Assembly: GCA_963524295.1 (NCBI GenBank)
Contig: CAURFZ010000001.1
Span: 361,509-425,508, forward strand
Source: an uncultured Candidatus Saccharibacteria bacterium
Lineage (GTDB): Bacteria > Patescibacteriota > Saccharimonadia > Saccharimonadales > Saccharimonadaceae
Length of the DNA: 64,000 bases
Direction: 5' to 3'
The position numbers and the translations under genes are program-made. This document shows positions 6,577-46,080 of this stretch, one piece after another (within the stretch, counting starts at the first letter, position 1; every line of letters begins with the position of its first letter). The notes under the pieces are model-generated. The model saw only the letters and a list, made by a program, of their open reading frames with translations. It did no database searches and had not been told where the DNA came from.

Positions 6577-6596
6577 TGATATATATATATATATCA
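6577..6596. repeat. Perfect 20-nt palindrome TGAT(AT)6ATCA
   Basis: Read directly in the AT-rich spacer upstream of the 6667 gene. Confidence 0.9.
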
Positions 6597-7015: not shown

Positions 7016-7055
7016 GCCCACCCAGCCTTATGTTACACAATAAGGCTGGGTGGGC
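7016..7055 (+). terminator. 15-bp perfect hairpin after the secreted-protein gene
   Basis: GCCCACCCAGCCTTA-N10-TAAGGCTGGGTGGGC, starting 11 nt after the stop. No clear T-tract. Confidence 0.5.
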
Positions 7056-7097
7056 AAACAACATTCAGTAATAACTAATAACATAAGGAGTTGTATT

Positions 7098-7304
7098 ATG
7101 ACTCATATACCAGCTTATTTTGCTTTGTTGATTCGCGCGCCCGAGGCAAATGCGCTTTTTTGGTCGGCCGTCGCCTTCCATGTTGTGCTATTTGTGGTGG
7201 CTATTTGGCTACTTGTTTGGTTCGTCCGGCGAGTCAATCAGATGAGCCAATCGCTCACATCGATCGATGAGAAGCTAAGCGAATTCCTTGATAAGAGTCG
7301 GTAG
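7098..7304 (+). CDS. Small single-pass membrane protein (68 aa)
   Basis: AAGGAG is 8 nt before ATG 7098. TM segment AVAFHVVLFVVAIWLLVWFV. Confidence 0.55.
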   Translation: MTHIPAYFALLIRAPEANALFWSAVAFHVVLFVVAIWLLVWFVRRVNQMSQSLTSIDEKLSEFLDKSR

Positions 7305-7678
7305 TGTGGCTTCTAGTGGCCTATACGGCCAAGCAATCCAGGTCGACGAATACTCCTCGCTTAAGGAAGGGCTAAGAAATCGCAAGACCCATAATATCAC
7401 ACTCATCTACCTCTGTTTTTGCGTGCAACAAAGTAGGGGTAGGTGGGGTTTTATTATGGTATAGATCTATCTTTCGATACTGCTTCTTGCCATATCACCC
7501 TCCTCTGATGTATATAAGACTCAATACCAACCTCTCGTACTGGCGCTACAGAGAAGAGAGAATGACGCAAAAGAGAAAAAATTTTTATATCCAAGCCAAT
7601 AATAATCAACCCTCATTCTCTGCAATAGATCCTACCAGAGGAGTTAGTGGATAAGCCAAGAGACTCCTCAGACCTACC

Positions 7679-8647
7679 TTACCCAAACATCATCAGCTGC
7701 GCCACCAGCCCATCGCGGGTGATGCTGCTGGCGTGGGTGCCAATGCAAACCAGCTTGGGCACTTCACCAGGCTGGCCAGTAGTGATCTGAATCTGCTCGG
7801 GCGTAGCTTCGATATGCCGGCGCGTGCCATGCTCATCAATAAAGCATCCCTTGAGCCGGCGCAGCTCATACGTCGCAAAGAGCTCGAGCCACAGCGTCTC
7901 AAAGGCTGCCTCGGTAGTAGTGAGCTGCGACATATCGATGACGCTGTAGGTCGGGTTATCCGGCACGGCGAGCTCACCATCGTACGTATCAAAGAAGGTG
8001 AGTAGACTCGACGGCGTTGTGATCTTGCTGAGGTCAAAATGCCCATGCGGCGCAGACAACACCCGCGTATAAGGTAGAGCACGGCGCTTGGCGTCATAGA
8101 TAGCGCGGTCGTCGCCATGCAGGAGATCTTCTTTGGTAATAAGGACTGTATCGGCAGCTTGCAGCTCCACCTCGTGGGCTGGCTCAATACCGTGCAAAAT
8201 CTCGTGCGCCGTGATGACGTAATAGCTCTGCAATAGCTCGTATTTGGCAAAGATCCGCGCATTGATGAGCTTCTCTACCAAGTTCATCGTCCGCGCGACC
8301 CCTGTTGCCTCGATAAAAACCGGGGCAGGGGACGACTGGCAAAAATCCAGTAGCATGCGCGTCAAGGCATGCTTAGACGAGCAGCACACGCAGTCGCCCG
8401 CCAGCGTCGTCACAAGCTCCGCCAGGCCTTCTAGCCGGTAGCCATCGACGTTCTCGTTGGCATATTCATTCTCAATCACGCGCGAGCCAGCAAACTCCGG
8501 CTGGCGCAAAAGATACTCCAACACGCTCGTCTTGCCCGCCCCGAGCGAGCCATTGATGAGGTAGAGCGGTACCAGGCCAGGCTGAGTGCGCTGCTCATCA
8601 AAGGCGGCATTGAGGCTAAATTCAAGATCATTATCGCGCTGGGCCAT
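7679..8647 (-). CDS. COG0523/CobW-type G3E-family GTPase (putative metallochaperone)
   Basis: P-loop GSLGAGKTS, CxCC motif GDCVCCSS, IEATGVA. ATG 8647 lies 6 nt after TGCTATACT. An alternative GTG start is at 8683. Confidence 0.85.
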   Translation of the reverse strand: MAQRDNDLEFSLNAAFDEQRTQPGLVPLYLINGSLGAGKTSVLEYLLRQPEFAGSRVIENEYANENVDGYRLEGLAELVTTLAGDCVCCSSKHALTRMLLDFCQSSPAPVFIEATGVARTMNLVEKLINARIFAKYELLQSYYVITAHEILHGIEPAHEVELQAADTVLITKEDLLHGDDRAIYDAKRRALPYTRVLSAPHGHFDLSKITTPSSLLTFFDTYDGELAVPDNPTYSVIDMSQLTTTEAAFETLWLELFATYELRRLKGCFIDEHGTRRHIEATPEQIQITTGQPGEVPKLVCIGTHASSITRDGLVAQLMMFG

Positions 8648-8884
8648 GAGTTTAGTATAGCATGGCTCAGTATATCCGCTCACTCCAACAGAGGATATTA
8701 TGGTCTTATACTAAGGAGTAAGGCTGCTGAGTAACGGTGCTACAGCTGAACCGAAAATGTTCCGGCCAGATTATAACAGCGGTTATCCGCCTACTGTGTG
8801 GCTGGCCTCCATATATTTTCTTGTTCAGCTATAGCACCACCAGCGCAGTCATAACAAAACCTTATCCGTGCTATACTAATAGAT

Positions 8885-9463
8885 ATGAAATTACTTCTCG
8901 CTCTCGGCAACCCTGGCCCGCGCTATGCCGCCACCCGGCACAACGCTGGTTTCATCATCCTCGATACTTATGCAGCAGAGCAGGGGGTGCAGTTTACCCC
9001 AAAGAGCCGATTTAATGCTGAGCTAGCCGAGTCTTCGCGGGGCGGAGAAAAGGTCATCCTCGCCAAGCCGACCACATTTTATAACGAGACAGGGGTCGCA
9101 GCGCGGGCAATTATGGATTTTTATAAATTATCACTCGACGATGTGCTCGTTATTCACGATGATGTGGCCCTCGATTTTGGCAAAATTCGCGTTAGGCGAG
9201 GCGGCGAGAGCGCAGGCAACAATGGGCTTAAGTCGCTCCACCAGCATATTGGGCAGAATTTTTGGCACATTCGCCTTGGCACAGACAATAAAATGCGGCA
9301 GCAAGTCGGTGATATTGACTTCGTCTTGAGTAACTTTACCTCAGATGAGCGAGCCCTTTTGCAACAGTGGGCAGCTGAGCAGTCAGCCTCTCTCATTGCG
9401 CAATTCCTTGCGGGAGACATAGCAGCGACGAGTGTGACGTACCAGCCGTCGGTACAGGTATAA
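8885..9463 (+). CDS. pth: Peptidyl-tRNA hydrolase
   Basis: LALGNPGPRYAATRHNAGF and HDDVALDFGKIRVR. TGCTATACT ends 7 nt before the ATG. Confidence 0.95.
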   Translation: MKLLLALGNPGPRYAATRHNAGFIILDTYAAEQGVQFTPKSRFNAELAESSRGGEKVILAKPTTFYNETGVAARAIMDFYKLSLDDVLVIHDDVALDFGKIRVRRGGESAGNNGLKSLHQHIGQNFWHIRLGTDNKMRQQVGDIDFVLSNFTSDERALLQQWAAEQSASLIAQFLAGDIAATSVTYQPSVQV

Positions 9464-9540
9464 TACATTATTTCGAGCGTATTTTATCTCTCGACGACAT
9501 ATATCAGTGGTGAGTTTGTGGCTTTTGTTTATAGCAATAT

Positions 9541-10653
9541 CTACCGCTTCACAATCTTCTTCACCCCACGCTTGAAGCGCTGCTCAGCGTGGTGGACGGT
9601 GTTTGCGGTTGCAGTCTGAAGGTTAATGGCACGAGCCTCGAGGATGCTACTACCGACTGCCAAGCTAATAAAGACAAGGCCCAGCCCACCGGTCGCCCAT
9701 TCAGGCAGCTCCACGTGGAAGAGCTTGGCGATCATCATCACACCCAGCGCCATAATAGCCCAGTGCGCACCATTCTCAAGATACTTATATTTACCCAGTG
9801 CACCAGTCCGTAGTAGATAGACCGTGAGTGAGCGCACCCAGATGGCACCCGCCCCGAGGCCTGCCACAATCAAGACAATACTACTGGTGATAGCAAATGC
9901 ACCAATCACCCCATCAAAACTAAAGCTCGCGTCCAACACCTCCAGGTACATCAGGCTAGCAAAGGCCGCCCAGCCTGTTTTTGCCTTGAGAGACTGCGCC
10001 GTGTCGTCATGAAAGAACGAACCAAAGAGTTCCAGTCCAATATGCAGCAAGATTCCTAGGATAGATGAGATCAGCACCACCGACTCATACTGCCGCTCCA
10101 CCGTGAAGTACAGCACCGCTGCCACCGCCAGCATCACACACACTTTGAGGTTCTCAAAACGCCCCGCCTTGGCTAGCCATGGCTCAACGTGCCGCATCCA
10201 GTGTACCCGCTTGTTGTAGTCCATAAAGTAACTTAGGCCAATCATGATCAAAAACGCCCCGCCAAAGGCATCGATCATTGGCGATGCAGCATGAAGGATG
10301 TGCCCATACTCCGCTGGCTTATGTAGCGCGAGATCGACCACTGTTGAGAAGTCGTGCCCGCTTGCCACCATCACAATAACGATCGGCAGCACAAAACGCA
10401 CCACAAACACTGCAATAAAGATCCCCACCGTCAGGAAAATCTTTTGCCACAGTGGGCTCAGGCTCGCCAAGACGCGGCTATTAATGACGGCATTATCGAA
10501 GCTAAAGGTCACCTCTAGTAGTACTAGGATGGTAAACAGCCACAAGCCGCTCACCCCCAAATGGCCAAAAATCGCCCCGCCCAGCAGCACTGTCAGCAGC
10601 GCCGAAAACCAAAAAATACGAAAAGGGTGATGAGAATGCCAGAGATGTTTCAT
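9541..10653 (-). CDS. Integral membrane protein, TerC/DUF475-like
   Basis: About 9 TM segments with duplicated FSFDNAV / SFSFDGV motifs. Confidence 0.6.
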   Translation of the reverse strand: MKHLWHSHHPFRIFWFSALLTVLLGGAIFGHLGVSGLWLFTILVLLEVTFSFDNAVINSRVLASLSPLWQKIFLTVGIFIAVFVVRFVLPIVIVMVASGHDFSTVVDLALHKPAEYGHILHAASPMIDAFGGAFLIMIGLSYFMDYNKRVHWMRHVEPWLAKAGRFENLKVCVMLAVAAVLYFTVERQYESVVLISSILGILLHIGLELFGSFFHDDTAQSLKAKTGWAAFASLMYLEVLDASFSFDGVIGAFAITSSIVLIVAGLGAGAIWVRSLTVYLLRTGALGKYKYLENGAHWAIMALGVMMIAKLFHVELPEWATGGLGLVFISLAVGSSILEARAINLQTATANTVHHAEQRFKRGVKKIVKR

Positions 10654-10684
10654 AGTGATTTAGTATAGCACATGCATCAATGTA

Positions 10685-11893
10685 TCAGGAAGACTGTACT
10701 ATGTCTGCGGCGAATGTCACGGCTCGCCACAGTGGTTGCTGCTTATCCATCGCAGTAAGCGGCCCCATCATCTCACTCACACTCCCAAGATATGTCAGAC
10801 GCGGCTTGTATGTCGCTGTCTCTTTCTTATGAGCAATGATACTATAAGCTTTCAGAGTGTCCGTATCAGCCACGACTGTATTGCTTGCCTGTGTTATGCC
10901 AACGATCTTCACTTCAGCGCCTGTTGCTGTCTCGACTTGCGCTACGACAATGCCACCAGACATACCAGGCAAGACAGAATCCTCGCGCGCAGGATCATAC
11001 GGTTCGTTCTCATCCACTGTCTTCTCTATTCCTGCCACCACAGTTATTTTGCCCTCAGGGCCATCTTGCGCTACTGGGAAGAGGACGTTGAGGTGTGGCT
11101 GATTAGCCGGCCAGCGTGTAACCTGCGCCGGGCTGTTATTACTGCTATTGATAGGAAAGCCAAGCGCATACATTGGTTGGCCTTGTTGTATAATTTCCCT
11201 TGTTTCATCAGGGGTAGCAAATTGCAGTGCAGGAGCAGGCGTATAATTCTGGTGACGCAATGTTAATGCCGCGACATCTGGCACTGTTGGCCTGTGTGAC
11301 CCATTTGCCTTGCCAGTGTAGCAACCACTCCGGACGGCATAGCGATGGCCATTGGTCGTTTCTACCGCAATATTACCTCTCTGGTGCTCAGACGATACAA
11401 CATGCCCAGCCGTCAGCACCGCAGACCAAGCACCCGGCGTCTCGACAATAAACCCACTCCCGCCATAGTCTCCACCAGAGCCTGTCACTTCACTGCCATA
11501 GACATTAATCTTAACGACCGAAGGCTGCACCGCCTGCAACACTTCTTGCTTATGCCGCTCCAGGGCTGTATGATCGCCAAGCGCCTCAGCAATCGTGACC
11601 GAGGGCCGGCGTGTAATCTCTGTCGGCTGCCCCAGATGCGGCTGCGACATTGAATCATCCAGTGTCGTGCAGGCCGGCAACGGCTCCTTCGCCTGACGCG
11701 CCTCGAGTCGAGCACCAACAAACGACCACGTCCCCACAAGCGTAGCACCAAGCATCGCACACGATGCTCGCCAACCAATCGCTCGCCACAATCGCTGACG
11801 CCGCTCTGCCCGCTCTTGTTGTTGCCGCTCCATCCGCGTCTCTGGCCGAGAATGCGGGTCAAAATTATGTTCTCGAACTGCCATTTCTGTCAT
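10685..11893 (-). CDS. Membrane-anchored trypsin-like (S1) serine protease
   Basis: N-terminal TM, His LTAGHVV, Asp PDVAALTL, Ser LPGMSGG. ATG 11893 lies 9 nt after TATAAT. The ORF could extend to 11983. Confidence 0.8.
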   Translation of the reverse strand: MTEMAVREHNFDPHSRPETRMERQQQERAERRQRLWRAIGWRASCAMLGATLVGTWSFVGARLEARQAKEPLPACTTLDDSMSQPHLGQPTEITRRPSVTIAEALGDHTALERHKQEVLQAVQPSVVKINVYGSEVTGSGGDYGGSGFIVETPGAWSAVLTAGHVVSSEHQRGNIAVETTNGHRYAVRSGCYTGKANGSHRPTVPDVAALTLRHQNYTPAPALQFATPDETREIIQQGQPMYALGFPINSSNNSPAQVTRWPANQPHLNVLFPVAQDGPEGKITVVAGIEKTVDENEPYDPAREDSVLPGMSGGIVVAQVETATGAEVKIVGITQASNTVVADTDTLKAYSIIAHKKETATYKPRLTYLGSVSEMMGPLTAMDKQQPLWRAVTFAADIVQSS

Positions 11894-19236: not shown

Positions 19237-19805
19237 GTACACATGATGGCTGCGGGTATCTGCGTGTGATTTTGCACTCATAGGCTTATGTATCGGCCGT
19301 TTTGTGTGCAAGATAATTCCGCCGCAGCCACAATTTGCTCATATACACCTCTTGTATCTATTCCTTTGCAGAGCATCTCAGGCATACAGCAAAAGCAACC
19401 AAAAAGGGTAGGGTAAGGCAGGGGAGTCTGCCACCCTTTCGTCAAAAATCCCTGGCGACCGCCCTACCCCTGTTTTTACCTCATTTTACTAGCATCTACC
19501 ACTAATAAGCTTATATTTGAGAGCTATGTTCTCGTGACATACCTCACCTGAGTTGTAGCTCTCTGCTTACCTCCGGTTCTTCTATGCTTATATCCCTCAA
19601 GGTTAGCTAGAGAGTCATACTTAGTCCTTGCAGATATACCACTGCCTATAACAGCCAAACAGCAGCACTCAGCCTATATTTGACTAACTATAGGTTATCC
19701 AAGCTATCCAGATACGCCGAGACATTCATAAGCTCGCAGTACCGGTTAGCATACCACACAATAAAACAGGCAATCACGTATAGCAAAATAGCAACCAGAA
19801 GCAAA

Positions 19806-19827
19806 GCATAAGCATAAGCATAAGCAT
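19806..19827. repeat. (GCATAA)3.7 hexanucleotide tandem repeat
   Basis: Read directly, within the gene-poor stretch. Confidence 0.9.
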
Positions 19828-33523: not shown

Positions 33524-35068
33524 TTATTCCTCCCGATTATTATGACTACGTGAACGACTGCGTGATGCGACTGCTGGTCGACGCGGCGGTGTAATCACCC
33601 CGCTAGAGCGTGCCGCTGGCCCTGGCATAGATGGTGGCATTTGGGGCGTTTGCGGTGGCGTGGGTGGTGTGGGCTTGGGTGGCACGGCTGGCGTAGAGCG
33701 AACAGAGCGCGGCGATGATGATGTAGCTTGCGCCTGTGCGGTAGCTGGCTTAGCACTCGGCTTCTTGCGCGCTGGTACGGCTGGCAACGGCTCAATGGGC
33801 TGCTGCGCCTGCTTCTTTTGCTGCTGCAATACGCGAGCAAACCATAGCGCACTGGGGCGCGGCGTCCGCTTATACGTCTTGTAGTCGACCGCAAAGAGGC
33901 CAAAGCGCGGCCAAAACCCTTTATCCCACTCAAAGTTATCGAGGAAGCTCCAGTGCATATATCCCAGCAGCTCTACCCCACTACCAAGAGCGCGCTGCAT
34001 AGCCAGGATAGACTGAGTGAGCCATTGCTTGCGGAACTGGTCGCGCTCGTCGGCCACACCGTTCTCTGTCACGAGCAGAGGGAGCTTGTAGCGGCCCCAG
34101 AGACGTTCCAGCGCAAGCTCGAGATGATCGGGCTGCATTGTCCAGCCGAGATCATTTGGCGTGGTCTCGGGGTTGTGGATGCGGTAGCCATAGATACGAT
34201 TGCTAAAGTAATAATTGACGGCGATGTAGTCGCTCTGCCGCACCACCTTGCGTAGGAAATAATCATCCTGGAAGAACTGCACCACCCGCGCCGTTGCTCG
34301 GCTGAGCCAGGCGTCGTCGCCCGGGTAGGTATAGGCCGAATTCTTGGCCACCGCCACCTTAAAGCGCCGGCTCTTGGCATGGAGGACTTTGGCTACTTGG
34401 TTGTGCGCGTAGGCAAGATTGCTCAGCACGCGGTAGGTTTGCCACTTGCTGCGAACGTTGGGTGGCCAGGTGCCATTGTCGTAGCTCTCCGTCACATAGA
34501 CGCAAGGCTCGTTGATGGTAATGATATAGCGCACTGTGGCACCGATCTCATCCATCAGCTTATCGACAAAGCGCACGAAGTACTTCACATTATCGCGCTT
34601 AGCAAAGCCTCCACGCGCAGCAAACCACACTGGCAGCGTAAAGTGAAACAGCGTCACAACTGGCTCTAGCCCGGCATCGGCCAGCGCGGCCAAGTACGCC
34701 TTGTAGTATTTGATCGCCTCGGCATTCCACGCGCCCTCTTCTGGCTCGATGCGCGACCACTCCACACTAAAGCGCCACGAGGTTAGGCCCATCTTCTTGG
34801 CCAGAGCGAAGTCTTGCGTGTAGAGCTCGGCGTGGTTGGCAGCTTTGCCCGAGATATAATTATTTGGATCTTTGGCGGCACTAGCAATGTGCGGCCAGTT
34901 GGGCAAGTCGCCATATTGATATTGGCTCTGAGCAGCGAGGGTCTTGGCCTGAGCTTTTTCCCACTCCGACCACTGGTTGTGCATACCACCCTCGACCTGA
35001 TGCGCGCTCGTCGCAGCGCCCCAGAGGAAATGTTTTGGAAATTGCACCGTAGATTGTTGCTTAGCCAT
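33524..35068 (-). CDS. GH1 beta-glucosidase with ~100-aa Pro-rich basic C-terminal tail
   Basis: FLWGAATSAHQVEGG, acid/base ITINEP, nucleophile VTENG. Tail PPKPTPPTPPQTPQMPP. Confidence 0.92.
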   Translation of the reverse strand: MAKQQSTVQFPKHFLWGAATSAHQVEGGMHNQWSEWEKAQAKTLAAQSQYQYGDLPNWPHIASAAKDPNNYISGKAANHAELYTQDFALAKKMGLTSWRFSVEWSRIEPEEGAWNAEAIKYYKAYLAALADAGLEPVVTLFHFTLPVWFAARGGFAKRDNVKYFVRFVDKLMDEIGATVRYIITINEPCVYVTESYDNGTWPPNVRSKWQTYRVLSNLAYAHNQVAKVLHAKSRRFKVAVAKNSAYTYPGDDAWLSRATARVVQFFQDDYFLRKVVRQSDYIAVNYYFSNRIYGYRIHNPETTPNDLGWTMQPDHLELALERLWGRYKLPLLVTENGVADERDQFRKQWLTQSILAMQRALGSGVELLGYMHWSFLDNFEWDKGFWPRFGLFAVDYKTYKRTPRPSALWFARVLQQQKKQAQQPIEPLPAVPARKKPSAKPATAQAQATSSSPRSVRSTPAVPPKPTPPTPPQTPQMPPSMPGPAARSSGVITPPRRPAVASRSRSRSHNNREE

Positions 35069-35183: not shown

Positions 35184-35210
35184 GAAAACAGATTGCAATA
35201 ATCTGTTTTC
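35184..35210 (-). terminator. Perfect 11-bp hairpin at the end of the five-gene island
   Basis: GAAAACAGATT-gcaat-AATCTGTTTTC. A second hairpin GGTCGATAT-N7-ATATCGACC lies at 35227-35251. Confidence 0.55.
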
Positions 35211-35316
35211 AGCCCTAGCAGCAAGAGGTCGATATCCAGTGAATATCGACCCTTATCTCCAGATATTTTCTTGTCCAATAGCATGATACTAGCTAGACAC
35301 AGAGAATATCCCTCCC

Positions 35317-36435
35317 CTACTCTGGCAATTGCTCATTCTCGCGCAAGATTTTCTTGCCGCGCATTTCGTATTTGACGCCAGTCAGGTCGCTCGTGACATA
35401 GTCGTCGTTGAGGAGATTGACAAAAACGGCCGCATCCTTGGCATCCATGATAATGATACTCCCTGCCGCGTCGTCCGTCATCAGGCCCAGACCCATTTCG
35501 TCAGCGTGGTCGATGAGTTGGTCTTGTGTCACTTGGGCGGGATCGAGCTTTTGCAGTTTAGTCACCAGCGCTGGCGTGTCGCGCACCAGGCGATCGAGCG
35601 TCAGCCCCTCAGGCAAGGTAAGCTTAAACTGCTGAGTGATGGCAGCAATCTTCTCCTCCGCCACAGCGTGCTTTTTGGCATCGTAGCCAAAAAGCCGGAC
35701 AAATTTACTCTCGCTAAAGGCAAAGATATCGTTGCCGACGATTAATACTTGATTATCCGGTGTGATGCGCAGGCCAGCATCAGCCACAAATGGCTGGAAC
35801 GACCCACCACTGTACATCCAGGCGGTTGCTCCCTTGAGCACCTGCGACTGAGGTAGCAGCTTGGCCACAAAGAATGGCTCGCTATCTGTACCCATCCGAA
35901 AGCGCGCAATAATGCCCTTAACCTTCTTAAACTCATGGTCACCCTCGTTGAAGGTCTCGAGATCTGCCTCGCTGTAAGTGATCTGCTCGATCACTTCCTG
36001 AGCGTGCACTACCCGGTCGAGCGTGGTGCGCTCGAGGACGTTTTCCTCCGCCTTGGCCGCCTCAAAGTCCCGCACCATCAGGCCAGTCGCTGCACCCGTC
36101 TGCACTGCTGTGATCATATCGTAGAGGAAGAGCACCTTGAGCTGCGCCTTGAGCTCAGCTGCATAGTTGGTGGCATACACCGTATAACCCTTGGTAAAGA
36201 GGAAGAGATCCACCTCTAACTGGTCTTTGTCACGATCGGCTTGGTTGGCCCAGAGGAAGATGTCGGTAGCATCGGTAGACGTGTCAGCAGCGGGCTGAGT
36301 GGTAGTATTTGTTGGCTGAGTCTCGGCATGAGCAGCAGCTACATCTACATCACTCTGCGGCGCAGCAGCTGACTCTGGTGGCGTTACTGAGGTGGTATCG
36401 GTGGTGGGGGTTTGTGTGTTTGGTTCGTTATGCAT
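35317..36435 (-). CDS. Hypothetical protein (372 aa), T/P-rich N-terminus, no named motif
   Basis: Long ORF with coding-like composition. TATAGT box lies 12 nt upstream of the ATG. Last gene of the island. Confidence 0.7.
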   Translation of the reverse strand: MHNEPNTQTPTTDTTSVTPPESAAAPQSDVDVAAAHAETQPTNTTTQPAADTSTDATDIFLWANQADRDKDQLEVDLFLFTKGYTVYATNYAAELKAQLKVLFLYDMITAVQTGAATGLMVRDFEAAKAEENVLERTTLDRVVHAQEVIEQITYSEADLETFNEGDHEFKKVKGIIARFRMGTDSEPFFVAKLLPQSQVLKGATAWMYSGGSFQPFVADAGLRITPDNQVLIVGNDIFAFSESKFVRLFGYDAKKHAVAEEKIAAITQQFKLTLPEGLTLDRLVRDTPALVTKLQKLDPAQVTQDQLIDHADEMGLGLMTDDAAGSIIIMDAKDAAVFVNLLNDDYVTSDLTGVKYEMRGKKILRENEQLPE

Positions 36436-36489
36436 GGTTTCTAGTGTACTATATTTGGGGTGTAAAGCCTATTGCTACATCCGGTAGTG

Positions 36490-37386
36490 TTACCGCTCGT
36501 CGCTTGCTGGCCCATGCCCCAGCGTCTCCAGTGTGCGGTCAACTACTTTCTGGGCAAAGCGCTGCATGTCATCATCGCTCCTAAGGTCGAGCCCCTCACC
36601 CTGGTCGATGAGAAAGCTGTGTGGCGGGAGATCTGAGACCATGGGGATTGGTTCGCCATAGCCTTGACCCGCCATAAACCCCATAGAGTAGCGCAGGTCA
36701 TTTGACTCATGCTCATTGAGGGCAAATACCCCGCGACGCAAGAATGCTGGGTGTGCCAAGCAAAATGCCGCTGTGTCGATATCCAGATATTCCCCTGGCC
36801 GTACCACTGGTATCTGGTATTCAGCGTAATGGGAAAAGCTATTATTTTGTGTCGATTCCACCATCGTGAGGCCAAGCGAATACCCCTCAGTACGCAGTGC
36901 CTCAATCGCCGCATACAGTGCCCCACCACGCTGCATAATTCGCTCGGACGAAACTCTGCTAGACATCGATGCATTAACATACATCATTGCCTGCTTCCCA
37001 TGAGTATCCTGGCGCACTTGATAATCTACCATATGCTCGGGCTCACCGTGTAGGTAAGCGCCAATATCTACCTCATCACCAGCGAAATCTAGCCGAGACT
37101 CTACAATTGGTCGCCGCCCCACTAGCTGATCTATAGCCACACGTCCCACTACTTGGCGCAAGCGCTGGCGGCCCTCTTCCCAGCCATAGCGCGCCAACTC
37201 GATCGCCTCATCCATCGTCCTTGTGCCCGACCACCGCTCCTCATCTGTCCTCAGGCTCGCTGCTCCGAGGTCAGACTGCTCTTGCTGCTCGGGCGCATGC
37301 TGCATCGCATCAATCATTTCGCCAATGCTATCGAGCTGACGAAAGTGCATCGTACGACCGTCATACTCTTGCTCAGAGCGACGCAT
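36490..37386 (-). CDS. Hypothetical protein (298 aa), translationally abutted partner of the AAA ATPase
   Basis: The ATG directly follows the ATPase TAG stop. GAGGAG lies 9 nt upstream. Segment MMYVNASMSS plus helix is vaguely vWA-like. Confidence 0.7.
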   Translation of the reverse strand: MRRSEQEYDGRTMHFRQLDSIGEMIDAMQHAPEQQEQSDLGAASLRTDEERWSGTRTMDEAIELARYGWEEGRQRLRQVVGRVAIDQLVGRRPIVESRLDFAGDEVDIGAYLHGEPEHMVDYQVRQDTHGKQAMMYVNASMSSRVSSERIMQRGGALYAAIEALRTEGYSLGLTMVESTQNNSFSHYAEYQIPVVRPGEYLDIDTAAFCLAHPAFLRRGVFALNEHESNDLRYSMGFMAGQGYGEPIPMVSDLPPHSFLIDQGEGLDLRSDDDMQRFAQKVVDRTLETLGHGPASDER

Positions 37387-39072
37387 CTAGTGACTCCTCG
37401 GCTGCTTACCACCCACGTCGGGGTGCTGCCTCAGCCAATTACACAGGGTGAATCGCCCAGGAACAAAACCGTGGCAGGCTTCGAATTGCTTGGCGTAATC
37501 CTGGACGTCATGGTCGTTCAATTGCGAAAAGTGGTCTTTCACAAACTCTATTCGGTCGTGTACCTCCACCTTAATGTGGTCATTATCATTATCCTCTGTT
37601 TCCCATTGTGTGATGTCCCCACGGTCGCGCTGCCAACGCCGATCCTCTACATTGACTGCAGCAACTATATCTGAGACAAGGACCTTTTTTGTCGTCCAAA
37701 TTTCGGGGTCTCCAAAGACCCGCTCTACTGCGCTAGTGATTGTTGGCGTTTGTAATGCGTCGTCTGTTAACTCACGCGAATGCATTGACTCCAAGTCCCA
37801 ACACACTCGAACAAATACACCGGTGTCGTAGTCGCTTGTGTCTAATTTATCGATATTATAACAGTCTGGCAAGAAAAGACGTATAGAACGATCAAGAGAT
37901 TTCTCAAGCCATCGTGTATTCGTTCTATCGATAGTAATTTCTTTATCCTCCGGTGGTGTAAACCACTCACTATCACTTCTCTTTTCAGTATCTTTTGGCT
38001 GAGTTTCTCGAGATGACTTACTGTTAGATTCATCAAGCTCTTTGTCTTTAGTGGCCTCGCGAGTCTTGTAGTCAAGCGCCTCTTGCACCCTCGGCATCAA
38101 CCGCTTGGCATTCTCAGCTAGCTTCTCGCGGTCATGCTCCTTCATACCCTTATAGAGGAGCATCTGGCCCAGCCAATCCTTACCGACGCCTTGCTCAGCC
38201 AGACGCACGCCATACAAGCTAGCACGCTGGCTAATGATAGCGCGGATACCAAGCTCGCCCAGTGCCTGGCGGTGCGCTCGCACTGTAGCCAGCCACTCTT
38301 TGGGGCTAGGTACCTCACCAGCCGAGATGTCGAGTGGCGAGCGGTTTATCTCCGTGCCAAGTATCAGCGCGTCCTCCAAATATTCATCAGTGTCCATTGG
38401 GATGAATGCAAAGCGGTCGATGGTGGCTGCATCGATCGGTGCCCGGCCCACATACTCACTCGTTGCCCCGCGGCCAATCGTGTTGGCGCTGGCGATAAAG
38501 CGCGCCGTCTCGTGGCGTGGCACTCTGCTATCCGGGAACTCACCATGGCCATTGGCAAGCGCACTGTTGAGGATAGTCAAAATACTTGCGCTACCATTAT
38601 CGATCTCATCAAACATAAAGACGCCACCATTTTCATACACCTCACGGTAAGCTGTACTATGGTAGCTACCCGTTGCATCGCGGTAGCCCATGAGGTCAGA
38701 CTTAGATGTCGTTGGCCCGAGCGATATAGAGCGAAATGGCAAGCCGAGGCTATTTGCCGCTTGCTCACCAGCAGTCGACTTGCCACTCCCTGCCTCACCA
38801 TGCAGCCAGATAGGTACATCTGCCTGCAAGGCTGCGCGCACGAGGGGCGTGTGGTAATGCGACGGTTTGGCTCTGTTGACAAACTGTTGCAATGCAGGGT
38901 ATTCCTGCTGCCGTGTTGTATGATCTAGCGCGAGGATCGTCCGCAGTGCATTTACAACCTCCTCGCTCGTCCCTTGGTGCAGTTGCTCTACAACCTGGCG
39001 TGCTTCACTCAAGTCTGCAGTCACCCCCTGGTGTACTGCTTTGATATCGCGCAGTGTTTTGCCGCTCATCAA
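37387..39072 (-). CDS. AAA_5/MoxR-type ATPase with ~300-aa C-terminal extension; the true start is probably upstream (see the (AG)8 finding)
   Basis: Walker A GEAGSGKS, Walker B VFMFDEID, IDRFAF. The TTG/ATG at 39072/39069 has no SD. The same frame is open up to 39192. Confidence 0.8.
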   Translation of the reverse strand: MMSGKTLRDIKAVHQGVTADLSEARQVVEQLHQGTSEEVVNALRTILALDHTTRQQEYPALQQFVNRAKPSHYHTPLVRAALQADVPIWLHGEAGSGKSTAGEQAANSLGLPFRSISLGPTTSKSDLMGYRDATGSYHSTAYREVYENGGVFMFDEIDNGSASILTILNSALANGHGEFPDSRVPRHETARFIASANTIGRGATSEYVGRAPIDAATIDRFAFIPMDTDEYLEDALILGTEINRSPLDISAGEVPSPKEWLATVRAHRQALGELGIRAIISQRASLYGVRLAEQGVGKDWLGQMLLYKGMKEHDREKLAENAKRLMPRVQEALDYKTREATKDKELDESNSKSSRETQPKDTEKRSDSEWFTPPEDKEITIDRTNTRWLEKSLDRSIRLFLPDCYNIDKLDTSDYDTGVFVRVCWDLESMHSRELTDDALQTPTITSAVERVFGDPEIWTTKKVLVSDIVAAVNVEDRRWQRDRGDITQWETEDNDNDHIKVEVHDRIEFVKDHFSQLNDHDVQDYAKQFEACHGFVPGRFTLCNWLRQHPDVGGKQPRSH

Positions 39073-39149
39073 GTTACTAAGCGACTGGAGCGAAATCTCA
39101 CCACTCCCCGCAGTATCTGCAGTGGTTTGCTCAACGCTGCCTGTTAAGG

Positions 39150-39165
39150 CTCTCTCTCTCTCTCT
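39150..39165 (-). repeat. (AG)8 dinucleotide tract (plus strand (CT)8) in the 5' region of the ATPase gene
   Basis: CC(AG)8CC read on the minus strand, between an SD-equipped ATG (39176) and the ATPase frame. Confidence 0.95.
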
Positions 39166-39204
39166 GGATTTGCCATATTTTCTCCTTATTGTCTAGATTA
39201 CTTT

Positions 39205-39234
39205 ATTGTAAGAGATATCTAGGAGGTTTGTCAA
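39205..39234 (-). promoter_or_regulatory. Sigma-70-type promoter for the ATPase operon
   Basis: Minus strand reads TTGACA (39234-39229), an 18-nt spacer, then TACAAT (39210-39205). This is followed by AAGGAG and ATG 39176. Confidence 0.5.
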
Positions 39235-39367
39235 TTAGCAAACTATGGGAGCTGCTGAGGTTTGCAACGCTCGTATAGGAGCTGAGCATGTTATAAGAAC
39301 ATTCATTTTTGTTTACTATAATCACCGAGAAGCATGAGACGACCCCAGACTTTGGGATAGCAATGCG

Positions 39368-40900
39368 CTACTGCACCGCATCCTCACCAAAATGCTTTTG
39401 CAGCCGCATTTTTATCGAGCCTTCGTGCCGACCAAGAGTACGGCTGAGCTGGCGGATGCCCACGCCTTGGACGAAGGCCTGCTTGAGCGTCTCATCGTCA
39501 ACTTTTGTCCATGGTTTGTAGGCGTTGGGGTGGGTCTGGCGCATTGTGGCGATCTTGGCCGCCCAGCTAGTGCTGCCAGTTTTGCCCGTCGGCTTCTTCT
39601 GCGGCATCGTAGCACGCTGAGCAGCCTGTTCGCGCAGATGGGCAAAGCGCTCAGCATCTTGGGCGGCACGAGTGCGCAGCTGCGTGTCGATGATGTATGC
39701 TTCATCGCTCATGGTAAGCGCCATGCGGTTGATGCCGGTGAGATATATAGCATCGAGGCTCTTAACGCGGCTCAGTGCCACATAACCCATACCTGGGACA
39801 AAGGCTTTGCGTAGGTCGATGCGTGCACTATCGAGCGTCATCCCCTGGCTTTTGTGCACAGTAATCGCCCAAGCCAGGCGCAGTGGCAGCTGCGCGATAC
39901 TAGCCCGCTTACGCGTACCATCGCGCAGTTCCCAGGTGTCAGGCTGCATTGTCACCACATGGCCATTACGAAACTCCACCACAGGGTAGTCTGTGCCTGG
40001 CTCGAAGTCTGCTACCAGGCCAATGCTCCCATTGACAAAGCGCCGTGCTTGGTCGTTCTTGATAGCCATCACCAGTGCACCCCGCTTGAGCACTAGCACC
40101 TCTGGTGCGAGGATGCTCCGCTGCAAGGTATCGACGTAATTTTGCCCACCAGTGCTGCTGCGTTGGTACGATACTTCATCGCCAGGCAGCTCAGCGAGGC
40201 GGGCTTGGTTGATCCGATCGACGTCGATATTAACAGTATGAAGCTCAGTCAGGTCGCTCTCGTGAGGTGGCTCTATCTCTGTGCGAGCTAGTAGTTGCTC
40301 GGCGTGGCGTCGGCGCAGGTCGCCAGCTCGCATAGCCGTTAGGATATCGAGCAGAGCGTCGCCCTTTTGCTGGCGGTATTGCTGGTCGAGGTAGAGAATA
40401 GCTGGGTCGAGCTGGCGCCAGGCTTGCGACTGCACCACAAAGCTCCCCTGCCGCCCACCATCGCGATTGACTGGCGGCAGCTGAAAGAAATCCCCACTCA
40501 TCACTACCTGCAGCCCACCAAAAGGCTGATCCGGCATCTCGCGCACGCGGCGGCACACTTCGTCGATCATATCCAGGCGGTAGTCGTGCAGCATACTAAT
40601 CTCATCGATGATGAGCACATCTGTTTTAGCAATAATATCGCGCCGCGTCTTCGACAGGTGATCAAAAAAATTGTTCGGCAAGCTATCGTGGATGCCAATC
40701 CCCGCCCATGCGTGGATGGTGCTACCACCCAGGTGTGTCGCCGCAAGCCCCGTCGTGGCAGTGACGGAGACATACTTGCCATCCGCCTTACATTGGCGGA
40801 TGAACTGCCCCAACACATACGTCTTGCCTGTGCCCGCTGGCCCTGTCAGCAGTGCACTCTGACCACTACGCAAAATCTCCTGTGCAAGTGTCTGATCCAT
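39368..40900 (-). CDS. PIF1/RecD-like SF1B helicase with C-terminal HTH tail
   Basis: GPAGTGKT, LIIDEISML, SGDFFQLPPV, TVHKSQGMTLD, YVALSRVKSL. C-terminal WTKVDDETLKQAFVQGVGIRQLSRTLGRHEGSI. ATG 40900 lies 7 nt after TATACT. Confidence 0.88.
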   Translation of the reverse strand: MDQTLAQEILRSGQSALLTGPAGTGKTYVLGQFIRQCKADGKYVSVTATTGLAATHLGGSTIHAWAGIGIHDSLPNNFFDHLSKTRRDIIAKTDVLIIDEISMLHDYRLDMIDEVCRRVREMPDQPFGGLQVVMSGDFFQLPPVNRDGGRQGSFVVQSQAWRQLDPAILYLDQQYRQQKGDALLDILTAMRAGDLRRRHAEQLLARTEIEPPHESDLTELHTVNIDVDRINQARLAELPGDEVSYQRSSTGGQNYVDTLQRSILAPEVLVLKRGALVMAIKNDQARRFVNGSIGLVADFEPGTDYPVVEFRNGHVVTMQPDTWELRDGTRKRASIAQLPLRLAWAITVHKSQGMTLDSARIDLRKAFVPGMGYVALSRVKSLDAIYLTGINRMALTMSDEAYIIDTQLRTRAAQDAERFAHLREQAAQRATMPQKKPTGKTGSTSWAAKIATMRQTHPNAYKPWTKVDDETLKQAFVQGVGIRQLSRTLGRHEGSIKMRLQKHFGEDAVQ

Positions 40901-40948
40901 AGATTCTAGTATACAAGGTTGTGGGGTGAGAGGCAAAGTACGTGCAGC

Positions 40949-41476
40949 CTATTGTGGTAATGTTGCACTACCAGGGATGAGCTGCGCGTAGTGCGTTTGC
41001 TCAAGTGCTTGCAGTTGCGCTGTATTAAATGACTGCATTGCCACTGCGTGCCGACTACTAAGGTGAGCAAGAAGTGCCTGCTGTGGATTATCGAGAAAAT
41101 GTGCCACCACCAAGCCACCAATAGCCACTATACGCCGCGTCTCTTCGGGTGTTTGAATATTCGTCTCGCGGAGGTCGTCTACGCCATGCGCCACACTACC
41201 ACCAAGTGTTTCATCAAACCACCCACGCGCCATACCTTGGTCATATGCACAGCACAGCGGCAATGGTGCACGCAAATTATGCTTACCAGCACGCTGAGCA
41301 AGCTGCCAGTGCCCCCCATAATTACCAATTGCTATATCAAATTCTGGATTATCTTTATCATTAAAGGTGAGGTTGGTCACCATACCGAGCCGCGCCGCTG
41401 GGCGCTCTTCACCAACAAAAAACGCACTCACATACGCAGTTGCTGCTGATTCGGATGTCACAATTGTTTCGCGCAT
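40949..41476 (-). CDS. Hypothetical protein (175 aa)
   Basis: ATG 41476 lies 6 nt after TATAAT. No motif recognised. First gene of the island. Confidence 0.6.
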   Translation of the reverse strand: MRETIVTSESAATAYVSAFFVGEERPAARLGMVTNLTFNDKDNPEFDIAIGNYGGHWQLAQRAGKHNLRAPLPLCCAYDQGMARGWFDETLGGSVAHGVDDLRETNIQTPEETRRIVAIGGLVVAHFLDNPQQALLAHLSSRHAVAMQSFNTAQLQALEQTHYAQLIPGSATLPQ

Positions 41477-41599
41477 AGAATTATTATAGTAAAGCACAAT
41501 GGGGCGAAAAATACAATAGAAGGAAACCGCACGTCAAGACACCCTTCCAGCCCACTACAGCAAACTCACCTGATGAAATATTAGCTCAACCTCGCCACT

Positions 41600-42616: not shown

Positions 42617-42776
42617 CTCCCTTCTCTTATCCTGTAGCGCCAGGCGAGAAAGGAGCTGCCTTCTTACGCGTCTCATATCTTCCCTGCGCACAGGCTGGAA
42701 TTAGCACCTTACTCGCTTCCCGAGTAGGTTGCTGGCGAGTCATCGGGCCAGTCCCTCGTCGCACTCTGGATATTAG
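42617..42776 (-). promoter_or_regulatory. SAM-I (S-box) riboswitch with SD-sequestering expression platform
   Basis: Minus strand reads ATATCCAGAG..GACGAGGGACTGGCCCGATGA..CGCCAGCAACC..GGTGCTAATTCCAGC..GGGAAGATATGAGA. P1 pairs ATATC with GATAT. CTCCTTTCTC (42655-42646) is complementary to the SD GAGAAGGGAG (42626-42617). Confidence 0.85.
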
Positions 42777-45096: not shown

Positions 45097-45657
45097 TTAC
45101 GGCAGGAGTATTGCTACGTTACCACGCTTTTTATGCTTGTTCACAGTTTTTTGCAGTGTCTTCGTGTCAAAGGTCATATCTGCCTTAGCCTGCTTGTCAA
45201 GGAGTAGGTACTGGGCCATTGCCATAGCAGCGAGCTTAGCAATACACCGTGCGCGCACTACCTCTGGGTTGTGCCGCTCATTAACCATACCTCTCTTTGC
45301 AACGTCAACCGGCCGAATAAGTGCGAGGACATTTACTACTCCATCACCTTCACCTTCACCTTCGCCTTCGCCCACCCAGCCACACAGCTCGCTTGTCATA
45401 CCGGGCAACGCAGTAGCTGCAAAATCACATGTTGACACAATGCGCCGATCGACAAAATCCATATAACTGCCCTGCGTCGTATGGACGGTATCCACCACTA
45501 GGCGCTGCTTGGGCCCTTCACCTTCTAGACGTATGTCGGTTGCCAGGCTAACTGGTGCAGTATGTGCACCGTCGTAGCGCTTGATCGATGGTGGAATAAC
45601 AGAATCAGTATGAATCTGTACGTAATTCGGTATTGAACTTTTTTCAAATAATTTCAT
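45097..45657 (-). CDS. Hypothetical protein (186 aa) with internal (Gly-Glu)n repeat
   Basis: TAAGGAAC precedes ATG 45657. GEGEGEGEGDG is encoded by hexanucleotide repeats at 45345-45372. Confidence 0.55.
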   Translation of the reverse strand: MKLFEKSSIPNYVQIHTDSVIPPSIKRYDGAHTAPVSLATDIRLEGEGPKQRLVVDTVHTTQGSYMDFVDRRIVSTCDFAATALPGMTSELCGWVGEGEGEGEGDGVVNVLALIRPVDVAKRGMVNERHNPEVVRARCIAKLAAMAMAQYLLLDKQAKADMTFDTKTLQKTVNKHKKRGNVAILLP

Positions 45658-46080
45658 AATGTTCCTTATCATATATGATATATTGATAATTTGCAAGTCA
45701 TGCTACCTCTGTTTTTACCAATACCCTATAGGGTACCTCCTATGCAGGCTGTAAGCGCATTTCAATAAGATTATACTCAGGCTAGATACAGTTAGTATCT
45801 AGCTACAACTATTGCTCAAAGCTATGCACTATAGCCTACTGCCCATGTAGGCTAAGGGGTATTTCGTACAAGAATGGATAATCAGGACGCGCTCTTTAAC
45901 ACATTACAATCCTTTGTGTCTGCGCTAACCTCTTCCCTGCTGCTTCATCTGGTACATTGCATCACTTAGCTAACTTTCATCCAGCTCTCAGCAATCGATG
46001 CATGCAGCGCAAATGTCGATCACCAGCAGCCTGATGGAAGTGTCACGAGCGGGATATAGATAAAACTGAGTCTAGAGCTC

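Follow-up and report, generated by a model that had tools for sequence, protein, structure and literature searches.

We analysed a 64,000-nucleotide stretch of contig CAURFZ010000001.1 from an uncultured Candidatus Saccharibacteria bacterium, here called the window, in which five open reading frames (ORFs) lie between metK and a GH1 glycosidase gene. The original prediction had taken these genes, encoding a 175-aa protein (gene A), a PIF1-like helicase, an AAA_5 ATPase, a vWA-like protein and a protein loosely resembling KwaB, as one island specifying a single uncharacterised conflict system. We found that the region is a composite and not a five-gene system. In Saccharibacteria the helicase and KwaB-like genes are inherited vertically as a strongly conserved pair; gene A is an unrelated variable gene in a neighbouring slot, unlinked to the ATPase pair; and the ATPase gene and its partner, which encodes a DUF7192 protein, occupy an insertion hotspot in the PIF1|KwaB gap, where the species complex of the window carries interchangeable cargo, in this case behind what reads as a phase-variable leader. 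By analogy with characterised relatives the two cargo proteins most likely form an AAA+/adaptor protein remodeller, for which a conflict role is plausible. We estimate the probability of this composite reading, remodeller function included, at about 0.6.

All five ORFs were present, co-directional on the minus strand: gene A at 40949-41476 (alternative end 41497), the helicase at 39368-40900 (alternative end 40936), the ATPase as first listed at 37387-39072, the 298-aa DUF7192 protein at 36490-37386 and the 372-aa KwaB-like protein at 35317-36435. Nearly all of the motifs named at the outset were real and could be located in the helicase and the ATPase. Exact or near-exact copies of the proteins were found on metagenomic contigs, the longest about 1.0 Mb, and the named relatives were Candidatus Saccharibacteria (TM7), oral taxa among them. 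In a 1-Mb genome, genes that are tightly packed and co-directional do not thereby constitute an operon-like "system", and the five genes had different histories when followed across related loci.

The conserved backbone consists of the genes at the two sides of the hotspot. The helicase (39368..40900, minus strand) is of the PIF1/Dda type of superfamily 1B (SF1B), as had been predicted; it matched Pfam PIF1 (2e-37, 129 bits), Pif1_2B (23.9 bits) and the Dda-like phrog_325 (3e-63), the motifs GPAGTGKT, LIIDEISML, SGDFFQLPPV and VHKSQGMTLD were all located, and the protein ends in a helix-turn-helix tail. The gene order in Saccharibacteria was RNaseH-(metK)-PIF1-[variable]-KwaB-(GH1)-CofD, followed by a cell-division cluster, and this order, GH1 included, was present in the complete genome CP064995.1. 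A metagenome scan anchored on KwaB yielded 80 loci. PIF1 lay upstream of KwaB on the same strand in all 35 distant-clade loci with enough flanking sequence, with a gap of less than 150 nt in 13 of the 35, and CofD lay downstream of KwaB in 41 of 41 loci; the synteny of PIF1 and KwaB was kept in every Saccharibacteria locus examined. Within the species complex of the window the ratios of nonsynonymous to synonymous substitution rates (dN/dS) were 0.051 for PIF1, 0.048 for KwaB and 0.053 for metK. The same order is found in Southlakia epibionticum, which has been cultured (SEML1_0262 to SEML1_0267), where the helicase SEML1_0264, with a P-loop/SH3/P-loop/tri-helical architecture, and the DUF4868 gene SEML1_0265 were non-essential in co-culture by transposon sequencing (PMC10633639 supplements). 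The pair is thus as conserved as metK, yet dispensable in laboratory co-culture.

The last gene (35317..36435, minus strand) encodes a protein with a T/P-rich N-terminus, for which a likeness to DUF4868/KwaB proteins had been suggested, and the profile searches bore this out. It scored 43.4 bits against Pfam KwaB (cut-off 26.3) and matched the PADLOC KwaB model at 1e-12 over residues 68-368, in effect full length; against the NCBIfam KwaB equivalog it reached 52 bits, far under the cut-off of 200, and we therefore regard it as a distant subfamily. Its profile also matched the solved KwaB structure (E 0.007), with a C-terminal motif in common. There were 853 homologues, and the top 120, at 71-96% identity, came from named Saccharibacteria; a tblastn search of GenBank phages gave no match. 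No transmembrane protein was predicted between 31.7 and 43.8 kb, and no PADLOC match to KwaA was found in five of the seven genuine multi-transmembrane ORFs of the window. Because neither KwaA nor a membrane protein lies nearby, this is not Kiwa as defined in PMC11785009. The gene immediately upstream was DUF7192 here and PIF1 in other genomes. The accessory or mobile distribution typical of defence genes was not seen for the KwaB-like gene, whose synteny is conserved and whose dN/dS is that given above. Fixed beside PIF1 and lacking KwaA, it is unlike any Kiwa system. KwaB has been reported to bind DNA and stall forks (PMC11785009), and it is a reasonable guess, by analogy, that the KwaB-like/PIF1 pair handles or polices DNA.

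A relative of the KwaB-like protein with 41% identity was seen in a different setting, on a contig filed as viral (IMG/VR UViG_3300020029_000696, 7026-11444), where its gene is flanked on one side by that of a RecT recombinase and on the other by that of a protein joining a PD-(D/E)XK nuclease to an FtsK/HerA-type ATPase; a DNA methylase is encoded close by. A metK fragment lies on the same contig, and for this reason the contig may be cellular or a provirus.

Comparison of close relatives delimited the exchangeable segment. Homology between the window and strain L039 ran from PIF1 to 39129 and resumed at 36436, one base before the KwaB ATG, so that the swapped segment (36437..39128, minus strand) corresponds to the body of the ATPase gene plus DUF7192. 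Among close loci with both flanks, which were 95-100% identical, the AAA_5+DUF7192 pair was present in 12 of 26 and absent in 14. Across genomes the PIF1|KwaB gap was empty or held an ABC transporter with FtsX, a PP2C-like phosphatase, AAA_5+DUF7192 or other cargo; in sister strains the alternatives were an unrelated 274-aa gene or a gene of 282-284 aa. Cargo state assorted independently of both the backbone tree and the gene A alleles. These results demonstrated that the gap is an insertion hotspot with interchangeable cargo in this species complex.

The alternative cargos themselves could be described in part. The 274-aa gene stood behind the same leader as the ATPase (L039-L061, about 9130-9960, for example L040 9135-9956) and had no match in Pfam, PHROGs, PADLOC or, by tblastn, GenBank phages. 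The stand-alone 282-284-aa cargo lacked the leader and carried the motif DSEWFTPP of the ATPase C-terminal domain, a relationship read by eye and not from an alignment. Eight loci (L017, L024, L026, L027, L029, L036, L059 and L062; for example L024 11067-11966) had an extra gene of 299 aa between DUF7192 and KwaB. This gene had no credible match in Pfam, PHROG or PADLOC, and was 31% identical to the ATPase C-terminal domain (E 3e-24); as a diverged free-standing copy, it gives some strains two versions of that domain.

The leader explains why the first listing of the ATPase gene began too far downstream. The spacer of 295 nt and the TTGACA-18-TACAAT promoter noted ahead of the ATPase were both present, the latter (39205..39234, minus strand) being the top-scoring promoter-like site of the region, with 11 of 12 positions matched. 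Downstream of it is a ribosome-binding site (RBS), AAGGAG at 39187-39182, an ATG at 39176-39174 and, at 39150-39165, the repeat (AG)8 (leader 39150..39187, minus strand). The ATG at 39176 with its AAGGAG is the true ATPase start, and the repeat shifts the frame: with (AG)8 a stop follows after 10 codons, whereas (AG)7 or (AG)10 gives an ORF of 595-597 aa. The ATPase/DUF7192 cargo of this strain was found in the OFF frame, which leaves the ATPase only a weak internal TTG/ATG start without an RBS. Over 38 related loci, compared between samples and spanning the ATPase cargo and the 274-aa cargo, n varied from 6 to 10, with 17 loci ON and 21 OFF, and near-identical strains differed. Strains with the 274-aa cargo had the same promoter, RBS and ATG-(AG)n leader and came into frame at the same repeat lengths, and the promoter at 39234-39205 lies within the segment common to strains with different cargo, homology extending to 39129. 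A shared promoter, RBS and ATG-(AG)n leader were thus shown, from which repeat length is predicted to switch translation of either the ATPase or the 274-aa cargo on and off. No other (CT/AG) tract of at least 6 units occurred in the 64-kb window. In another species, at a different genomic site, an ATPase 47% identical to that of the window was preceded by ATG-TCA-AAT-CC(AG)6, in frame (L030), so at least one further species has a similar switch with its ATPase pair.

The strong AAGGAG of the phase-variable ATPase contrasts with the starts of gene A, PIF1 and the KwaB-like gene. The boxes described for gene A and the helicase, TATAAT and TATACT at 6-7 nt ahead of the ATG, were found, and a TACACT box lies 7 nt upstream of the KwaB-like ATG; these -10-like boxes (in 40900-40936, 41476-41497 and 36436-36460) were unaccompanied by a Shine-Dalgarno sequence. 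The closeness of the boxes to the ATGs and the lack of a Shine-Dalgarno sequence together suggest leaderless transcripts for the three genes. Both perfect hairpins reported after the KwaB-like gene (35184-35210 and 35227-35251; together 35184..35251, minus strand) were present in the sequence; neither has a T-run, the terminator scan did not call them, and they were not confirmed as canonical intrinsic terminators. They may possibly mark the end of the transcription unit.

The ATPase core (AAA_5; 38089..39072, minus strand) is of the CobS/MoxR class of AAA+ proteins. It matched Pfam AAA_5 at 2e-12, in keeping with the first assignment, and the "CobS-like" phrog_249 at 2e-45 over residues 37-328; its best match among PDB sequences was CobS (6e-9). 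Both Walker A (GEAGSGKS, 38776-38799) and Walker B (VFMFDEID, 38599-38622) are intact. The core is followed by a charged, low-GC, lineage-specific C-terminal domain of about 230 aa (37390..38082, minus strand) with the motifs DSEWFTPP and HGFVPGRFTLCNWLRQHPDVG; the drop in GC noted for this part of the gene amounts to 0.45-0.47 over about 37500-38250. The domain had no family match and no tblastn match in GenBank phages; the homologue search gave four close matches only, all confined to this clade, and an AlphaFold2 (AF2) model built from a five-sequence alignment was unusable (pLDDT 35). At similar dS (about 0.2-0.3), the ATPase core had a dN/dS of 0.045, compared with 0.25 in DUF7192 and about 0.30 in the C-terminal domain, so that the latter two evolve about 5-6 times faster by this measure than the core. 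The motor is conserved while the presumed recognition parts are changing fast.

The partner gene (36490..37386, minus strand) begins with an ATG that directly abuts the ATPase stop, as had been noted. It matched Pfam DUF7192 (PF23822) at 5e-42 and 144.6 bits (cut-off 27) over residues 15-281, and phrog_1909 at 6e-40. The cargo was thus shown to be a CobS/MoxR-class AAA+ ATPase with a DUF7192 protein to which, judged from the junction, it is predicted to be translationally coupled. The family had 6959 cluster representatives at E <=1e-3, nearly all of them single-domain proteins of about 270-310 aa, and we found no literature that names it. The likeness to a degenerate vWA domain proposed for this protein found its support in predicted structure. 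The AF2 model had a pLDDT of 75 and a predicted TM-score (pTM) of 0.78, and its top Foldseek matches in the PDB were the NorD vWA domains of NorQ-NorD complexes (E 1e-3, probability 0.87-0.92, TM-score about 0.23), followed by the vWA/MIDAS (metal ion-dependent adhesion site) domains of Ku and MDN1. Against viral models it matched DUF7192 proteins strongly and then CobT-like/vWA proteins (probability 0.99, E 1e-4 to 1e-3). At the sequence level there was no vWA match in Pfam, and the profile returned nothing from PDB sequences. In the window protein the MIDAS position (36958-36978) is a degenerate N-x-S-x-S, and across homologues it reads N-x-S-x-[S/A/P], the intact DxSxS...T...D being absent; metal-dependent binding is for this reason doubtful, and the protein would be a compact vWA-like adaptor.

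The same two genes occur together well beyond this locus. In distant Saccharibacteria, at 47-63% identity, AAA_5 and DUF7192 were paired at other sites among housekeeping genes, without PIF1 or KwaB. In phages DUF7192 adjoins an AAA ATPase in Staphylococcus Kayvirus (ISP ORF179/ORF178), in an uncultured podovirus and in Mycobacterium phages, of which Jobypre has two DUF7192 copies. These observations establish a conserved two-gene ATPase/adaptor module common to Saccharibacteria and phages. In one viral contig (IMG/VR UViG_3300016263_000548, 7322-10600; L114) an ATPase of 40% identity is followed by three tandem DUF7192 paralogues, and the presence of several DUF7192 copies per motor, there and in Jobypre, fits the adaptor idea. 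The back-translated patterns of the DUF7192 alignment were narrow; scanned against IMG/VR they gave one locus, and against genome contigs they gave Saccharibacteria only, from which no inference on absence elsewhere is drawn. A restriction-like pair, an EcoRI-type methylase and a GmrSD/HNH gene, was observed at a distance of a few kilobases in two lineages, near the ATPase pair in one of them and on the upstream side of PIF1-KwaB in the other (L005-L007 2500-5300; L015/L016 1-2000).

Gene A (40949..41476, minus strand) behaved as a separate accessory ORF. The protein had no match in Pfam, PHROG, PADLOC, NCBIfam or PDB sequences. The metK|PIF1 slot that it occupies had at least three alleles, namely the 175-aa gene, an unrelated ORF of 237 aa (L001) and nothing (L021); the 237-aa allele likewise had no credible match in Pfam, PHROG or PADLOC. 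Over the backbone tree the gene A alleles, the PIF1|KwaB cargo and the extra 299-aa gene all assorted independently.

We propose, from the general model for such pairs (PMC7159879) and by analogy with NorQ-NorD, CbbQ-CbbO, CobS-CobT and RavA-ViaA, that the ATPase would form a ring, that DUF7192 would serve as a minimal vWA-like adaptor holding a target protein, and that ATP hydrolysis would remodel or release this target. Recognition of the target would fall to surfaces of DUF7192 and of the ATPase C-terminal domain, and the fast evolution of the presumed adaptor points to such a function. More speculatively, the target may be a conflict protein, of a phage or of the interface between epibiont and host, which would make the slot a contingency locus. 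We consider such a target probable because the pair is shared with phages, appears to be phase-variable, is found in some strains and not in others, and evolves fast in its presumed recognition parts.

Several observations weigh against this proposal. In neither protein did we detect an effector domain (nuclease, protease, TIR or the like). Of the PADLOC models run on the five proteins, only KwaB models and generic helicase models matched; the ATPase gave a marginal match to IetA (E 0.004) and DUF7192 none, so that neither cargo protein matches a defence model beyond that marginal one. Matches to solved structures back the vWA assignment only weakly (E and TM-score as above), the MIDAS is degenerate and the DUF7192 model is partly of low confidence. 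The dN/dS values of 0.25-0.30 are below 1 and could reflect relaxed rather than diversifying selection, and the repeat lengths were taken from consensus assemblies of different samples, which makes the switch a between-sample comparison. For viral MoxR-vWA pairs a role as assembly chaperones has been proposed (PMC7824862), and a non-conflict chaperone role in the cell is for that reason possible.

That last point leads to an alternative in which the cargo is a domesticated phage-type chaperone pair with a non-conflict job, for example in the assembly or maturation of a surface or attachment structure, phase variation serving host range or attachment. MoxR-vWA pairs are usually maturation chaperones (NorQD, CbbQO, CobST), and in distant Saccharibacteria the pair has housekeeping genes as neighbours, no mobile-element genes having been seen close to it. 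In host-associated bacteria phase variation often controls surface structures, which would suit such a role, and a proposal for the viral versions is that they help to assemble virions or tails (PMC7824862). There is, however, no conserved client gene beside the pair, half of the close strains lack it, and fast-evolving recognition parts are unusual for a dedicated maturation factor; we consider the chaperone role unlikely, without dismissing it. Another reading, a cobaltochelatase-type CobS/CobT pair boosting cobalamin synthesis, is hardly credible. It could appeal to the label "porphyrin biosynthesis" of phrog_249, to CobS being the best PDB relative and to viral cobST clusters, which have been proposed to boost cobalamin synthesis in this way (PMC8651126). 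The ATPase scored 33 bits against the CobS equivalog TIGR01650, whose cut-off is 558.55, DUF7192 is half the size of CobT and its MIDAS is not intact, and no CobN-like gene was among the called genes beside the pair in the loci examined. To our knowledge Saccharibacteria have a minimal metabolism and lack cofactor biosynthesis pathways, and we rejected this candidate as very unlikely on the CobS score and the lack of such pathways. Decay of the pair is a further candidate that we rejected. If the (AG)8 frameshift were an inactivating mutation in genes being lost, one would expect the OFF frame, which is seen here and in roughly half of the related loci, and the absence of the pair from many strains; but strong purifying selection acts on the ATPase core (dN/dS 0.045), the ORF past the tract is intact with no further disruptions, repeat length toggles in and out of frame in otherwise near-identical strains for two different cargos, and a similar ATG-(AG)6 leader precedes the ATPase in another species. 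A decaying remnant is very improbable on this evidence.

Two other alternatives tie the cargo to its neighbours. That all five genes form one conflict system dependent on nucleoside triphosphates, with helicase, ATPase, vWA-like partner, KwaB-like effector and a fifth component, drew on their tight, co-directional packing, on assignments (PIF1, AAA_5, vWA-like, KwaB-like) that the searches supported, and on KwaB being a known defence effector (PMC11785009). The distribution of the genes speaks otherwise, judged by the refuting conditions that the original prediction had itself named. PIF1 and the KwaB-like gene keep their synteny across Saccharibacteria under strong purifying selection; gene A and the AAA_5/DUF7192 pair vary between strains and assort independently, the pair being missing in 14 of 26 near-identical strains; and in more distant relatives only AAA_5 and DUF7192 stay together, at other sites and without PIF1 or KwaB. 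A five-gene system is therefore highly unlikely, and of the original prediction the conflict role survives only as a proposal for the two middle genes, ATPase and DUF7192. The remaining alternative is a Kiwa-like system without KwaA, in which the KwaB-like protein would be a DNA-binding effector, possibly acting with PIF1, and the interchangeable upstream genes (ATPase+DUF7192, the 274-aa gene, PP2C or the ABC transporter) would replace KwaA as sensors or regulators. Consistent with this, KwaB activation in Kiwa requires a partner (PMC11785009), the swapped segment has its right edge exactly where the start codon of KwaB stands, one transcript probably spans cargo and KwaB up to the hairpins, and RecT and a nuclease-FtsK ATPase flank the relative of 41% identity on its contig, which was filed as viral though it has a metK fragment. 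Against it, the slot is empty in many genomes, PIF1 there abutting KwaB directly, so that KwaB needs no cargo; the cargos are mutually unrelated, some of them, such as the ABC transporter, looking metabolic; and in other lineages the ATPase pair operates at sites where KwaB is not its neighbour. We judge this arrangement improbable.

Returning to the composite reading, with its conserved backbone and exchangeable, phase-variable cassette, we see several reasons for interest in it. In the ultrasmall, epibiotic Saccharibacteria few defence or contingency systems have been recognised, and these bacteria are only now becoming genetically tractable; an on/off switch driven by a repeat and serving exchangeable cargo would be a clear case of phase variation in the phylum. 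The ATPase+DUF7192 pair would offer a use for a very large, mostly phage-associated family (about 7000 cluster representatives), and the KwaB-like protein, as a conserved partner of PIF1 and not part of a mobile Kiwa, bears on the exchange of parts between defence effectors and core DNA metabolism. A bolder picture, which we offer tentatively and think doubtful in its entirety, is that the PIF1-KwaB-like pair works without KwaA as a core module of DNA surveillance or handling, built from a former Kiwa effector, and that the slot is a plug-in contingency locus in which one promoter and (AG)n switch would drive at least two cargos, one of them a phage-type AAA+/minimal-vWA remodeller with recognition parts that diversify as it contends with phages or the bacterial host in an arms race.

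Elsewhere around the locus, the riboswitch ascribed to metK was confirmed as an S-adenosylmethionine riboswitch at 42672-42776. A prophage remnant was rejected, since no integrase or phage structural-protein Pfam family was found among the called genes within 10-kb flanks. The GH1 glycosidase downstream (33524-35068, minus strand; 514 aa) has a C-terminal tail of about 100 aa rich in Pro, Ser, Thr and Ala, which is absent from its orthologues of about 418 aa in other Saccharibacteria. A 199-aa ORF at 45097-45696 (minus strand) carries a GEGEGEGEGEGDG repeat arising from a repetitive tract and is another possible region of variable length; other simple repeats of the window were (AT)8 at 6579-6594 and (AAGCAT)4 at 19804-19827.

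Set beside known systems, the window helicase has all the conserved motifs and the Pif1 2B/SH3 domain of Pif1/Dda-type SF1B helicases, and differs from these in its helix-turn-helix tail and in its fixed partnership, in Saccharibacteria, with a KwaB-like gene. Simple-sequence-repeat contingency loci occur in Neisseria, Haemophilus, Campylobacter, Helicobacter and Mycoplasma. The leader resembles them in having a dinucleotide tract just past the start codon whose length toggles the frame among near-identical strains; it differs in that the leader is kept while the coding body is swapped for an unrelated gene, and in that the organism is a Saccharibacterium, and the papers that a literature search on phase variation in this group returned had nothing comparable in their titles and abstracts. 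With the MoxR/CobS + vWA pairs (NorQ-NorD, CbbQ-CbbO, CobS-CobT, RavA-ViaA and viral cobST) the cargo shares an AAA_5 ATPase, whose closest solved relative is CobS, followed by a partner whose predicted fold may be of the NorD/CobT vWA type, and the two-gene arrangement itself is found in phages. In contrast to these pairs, the partner here is minimal (298 aa), with a degenerate MIDAS and weak likeness to solved vWA domains, no client gene (CobN, NorB or Rubisco) lies near, the ATPase has a fast-evolving, lineage-specific C-terminal domain, and expression of the pair appears to be phase-variable. The vWA-MoxR ternary conflict systems (Kaur, Burroughs, Iyer & Aravind 2020, PMC7159879) likewise have a MoxR-class ATPase and a vWA-like co-chaperone, together with a variable region that diverges rapidly and is predicted to be all-helical, a place that would be taken here by the ATPase C-terminal domain. 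Unlike them, the window has only two genes that travel together and no third component, VMAP, iSTAND, FtsH and beta-propeller domains being absent from Pfam scans of the locus proteins and alternative cargos; no effector domain is fused to DUF7192, whose family is single-domain; and the host, whose genome is about 1 Mb, lives as a single-celled epibiont and does not belong to the multicellular bacteria. To Kiwa the likeness lies in the last gene, which matches KwaB/DUF4868 profiles over its full length and has the C-terminal motif of the solved KwaB; the locus differs in lacking KwaA or any nearby membrane protein, and its KwaB-like gene is a syntenic, slowly evolving backbone gene beside PIF1 and not a mobile gene of a defence island. 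We rated the locus as a combination of known kinds, namely a MoxR-vWA pair, a simple-sequence-repeat contingency locus and an orphan KwaB, in a new variant form.

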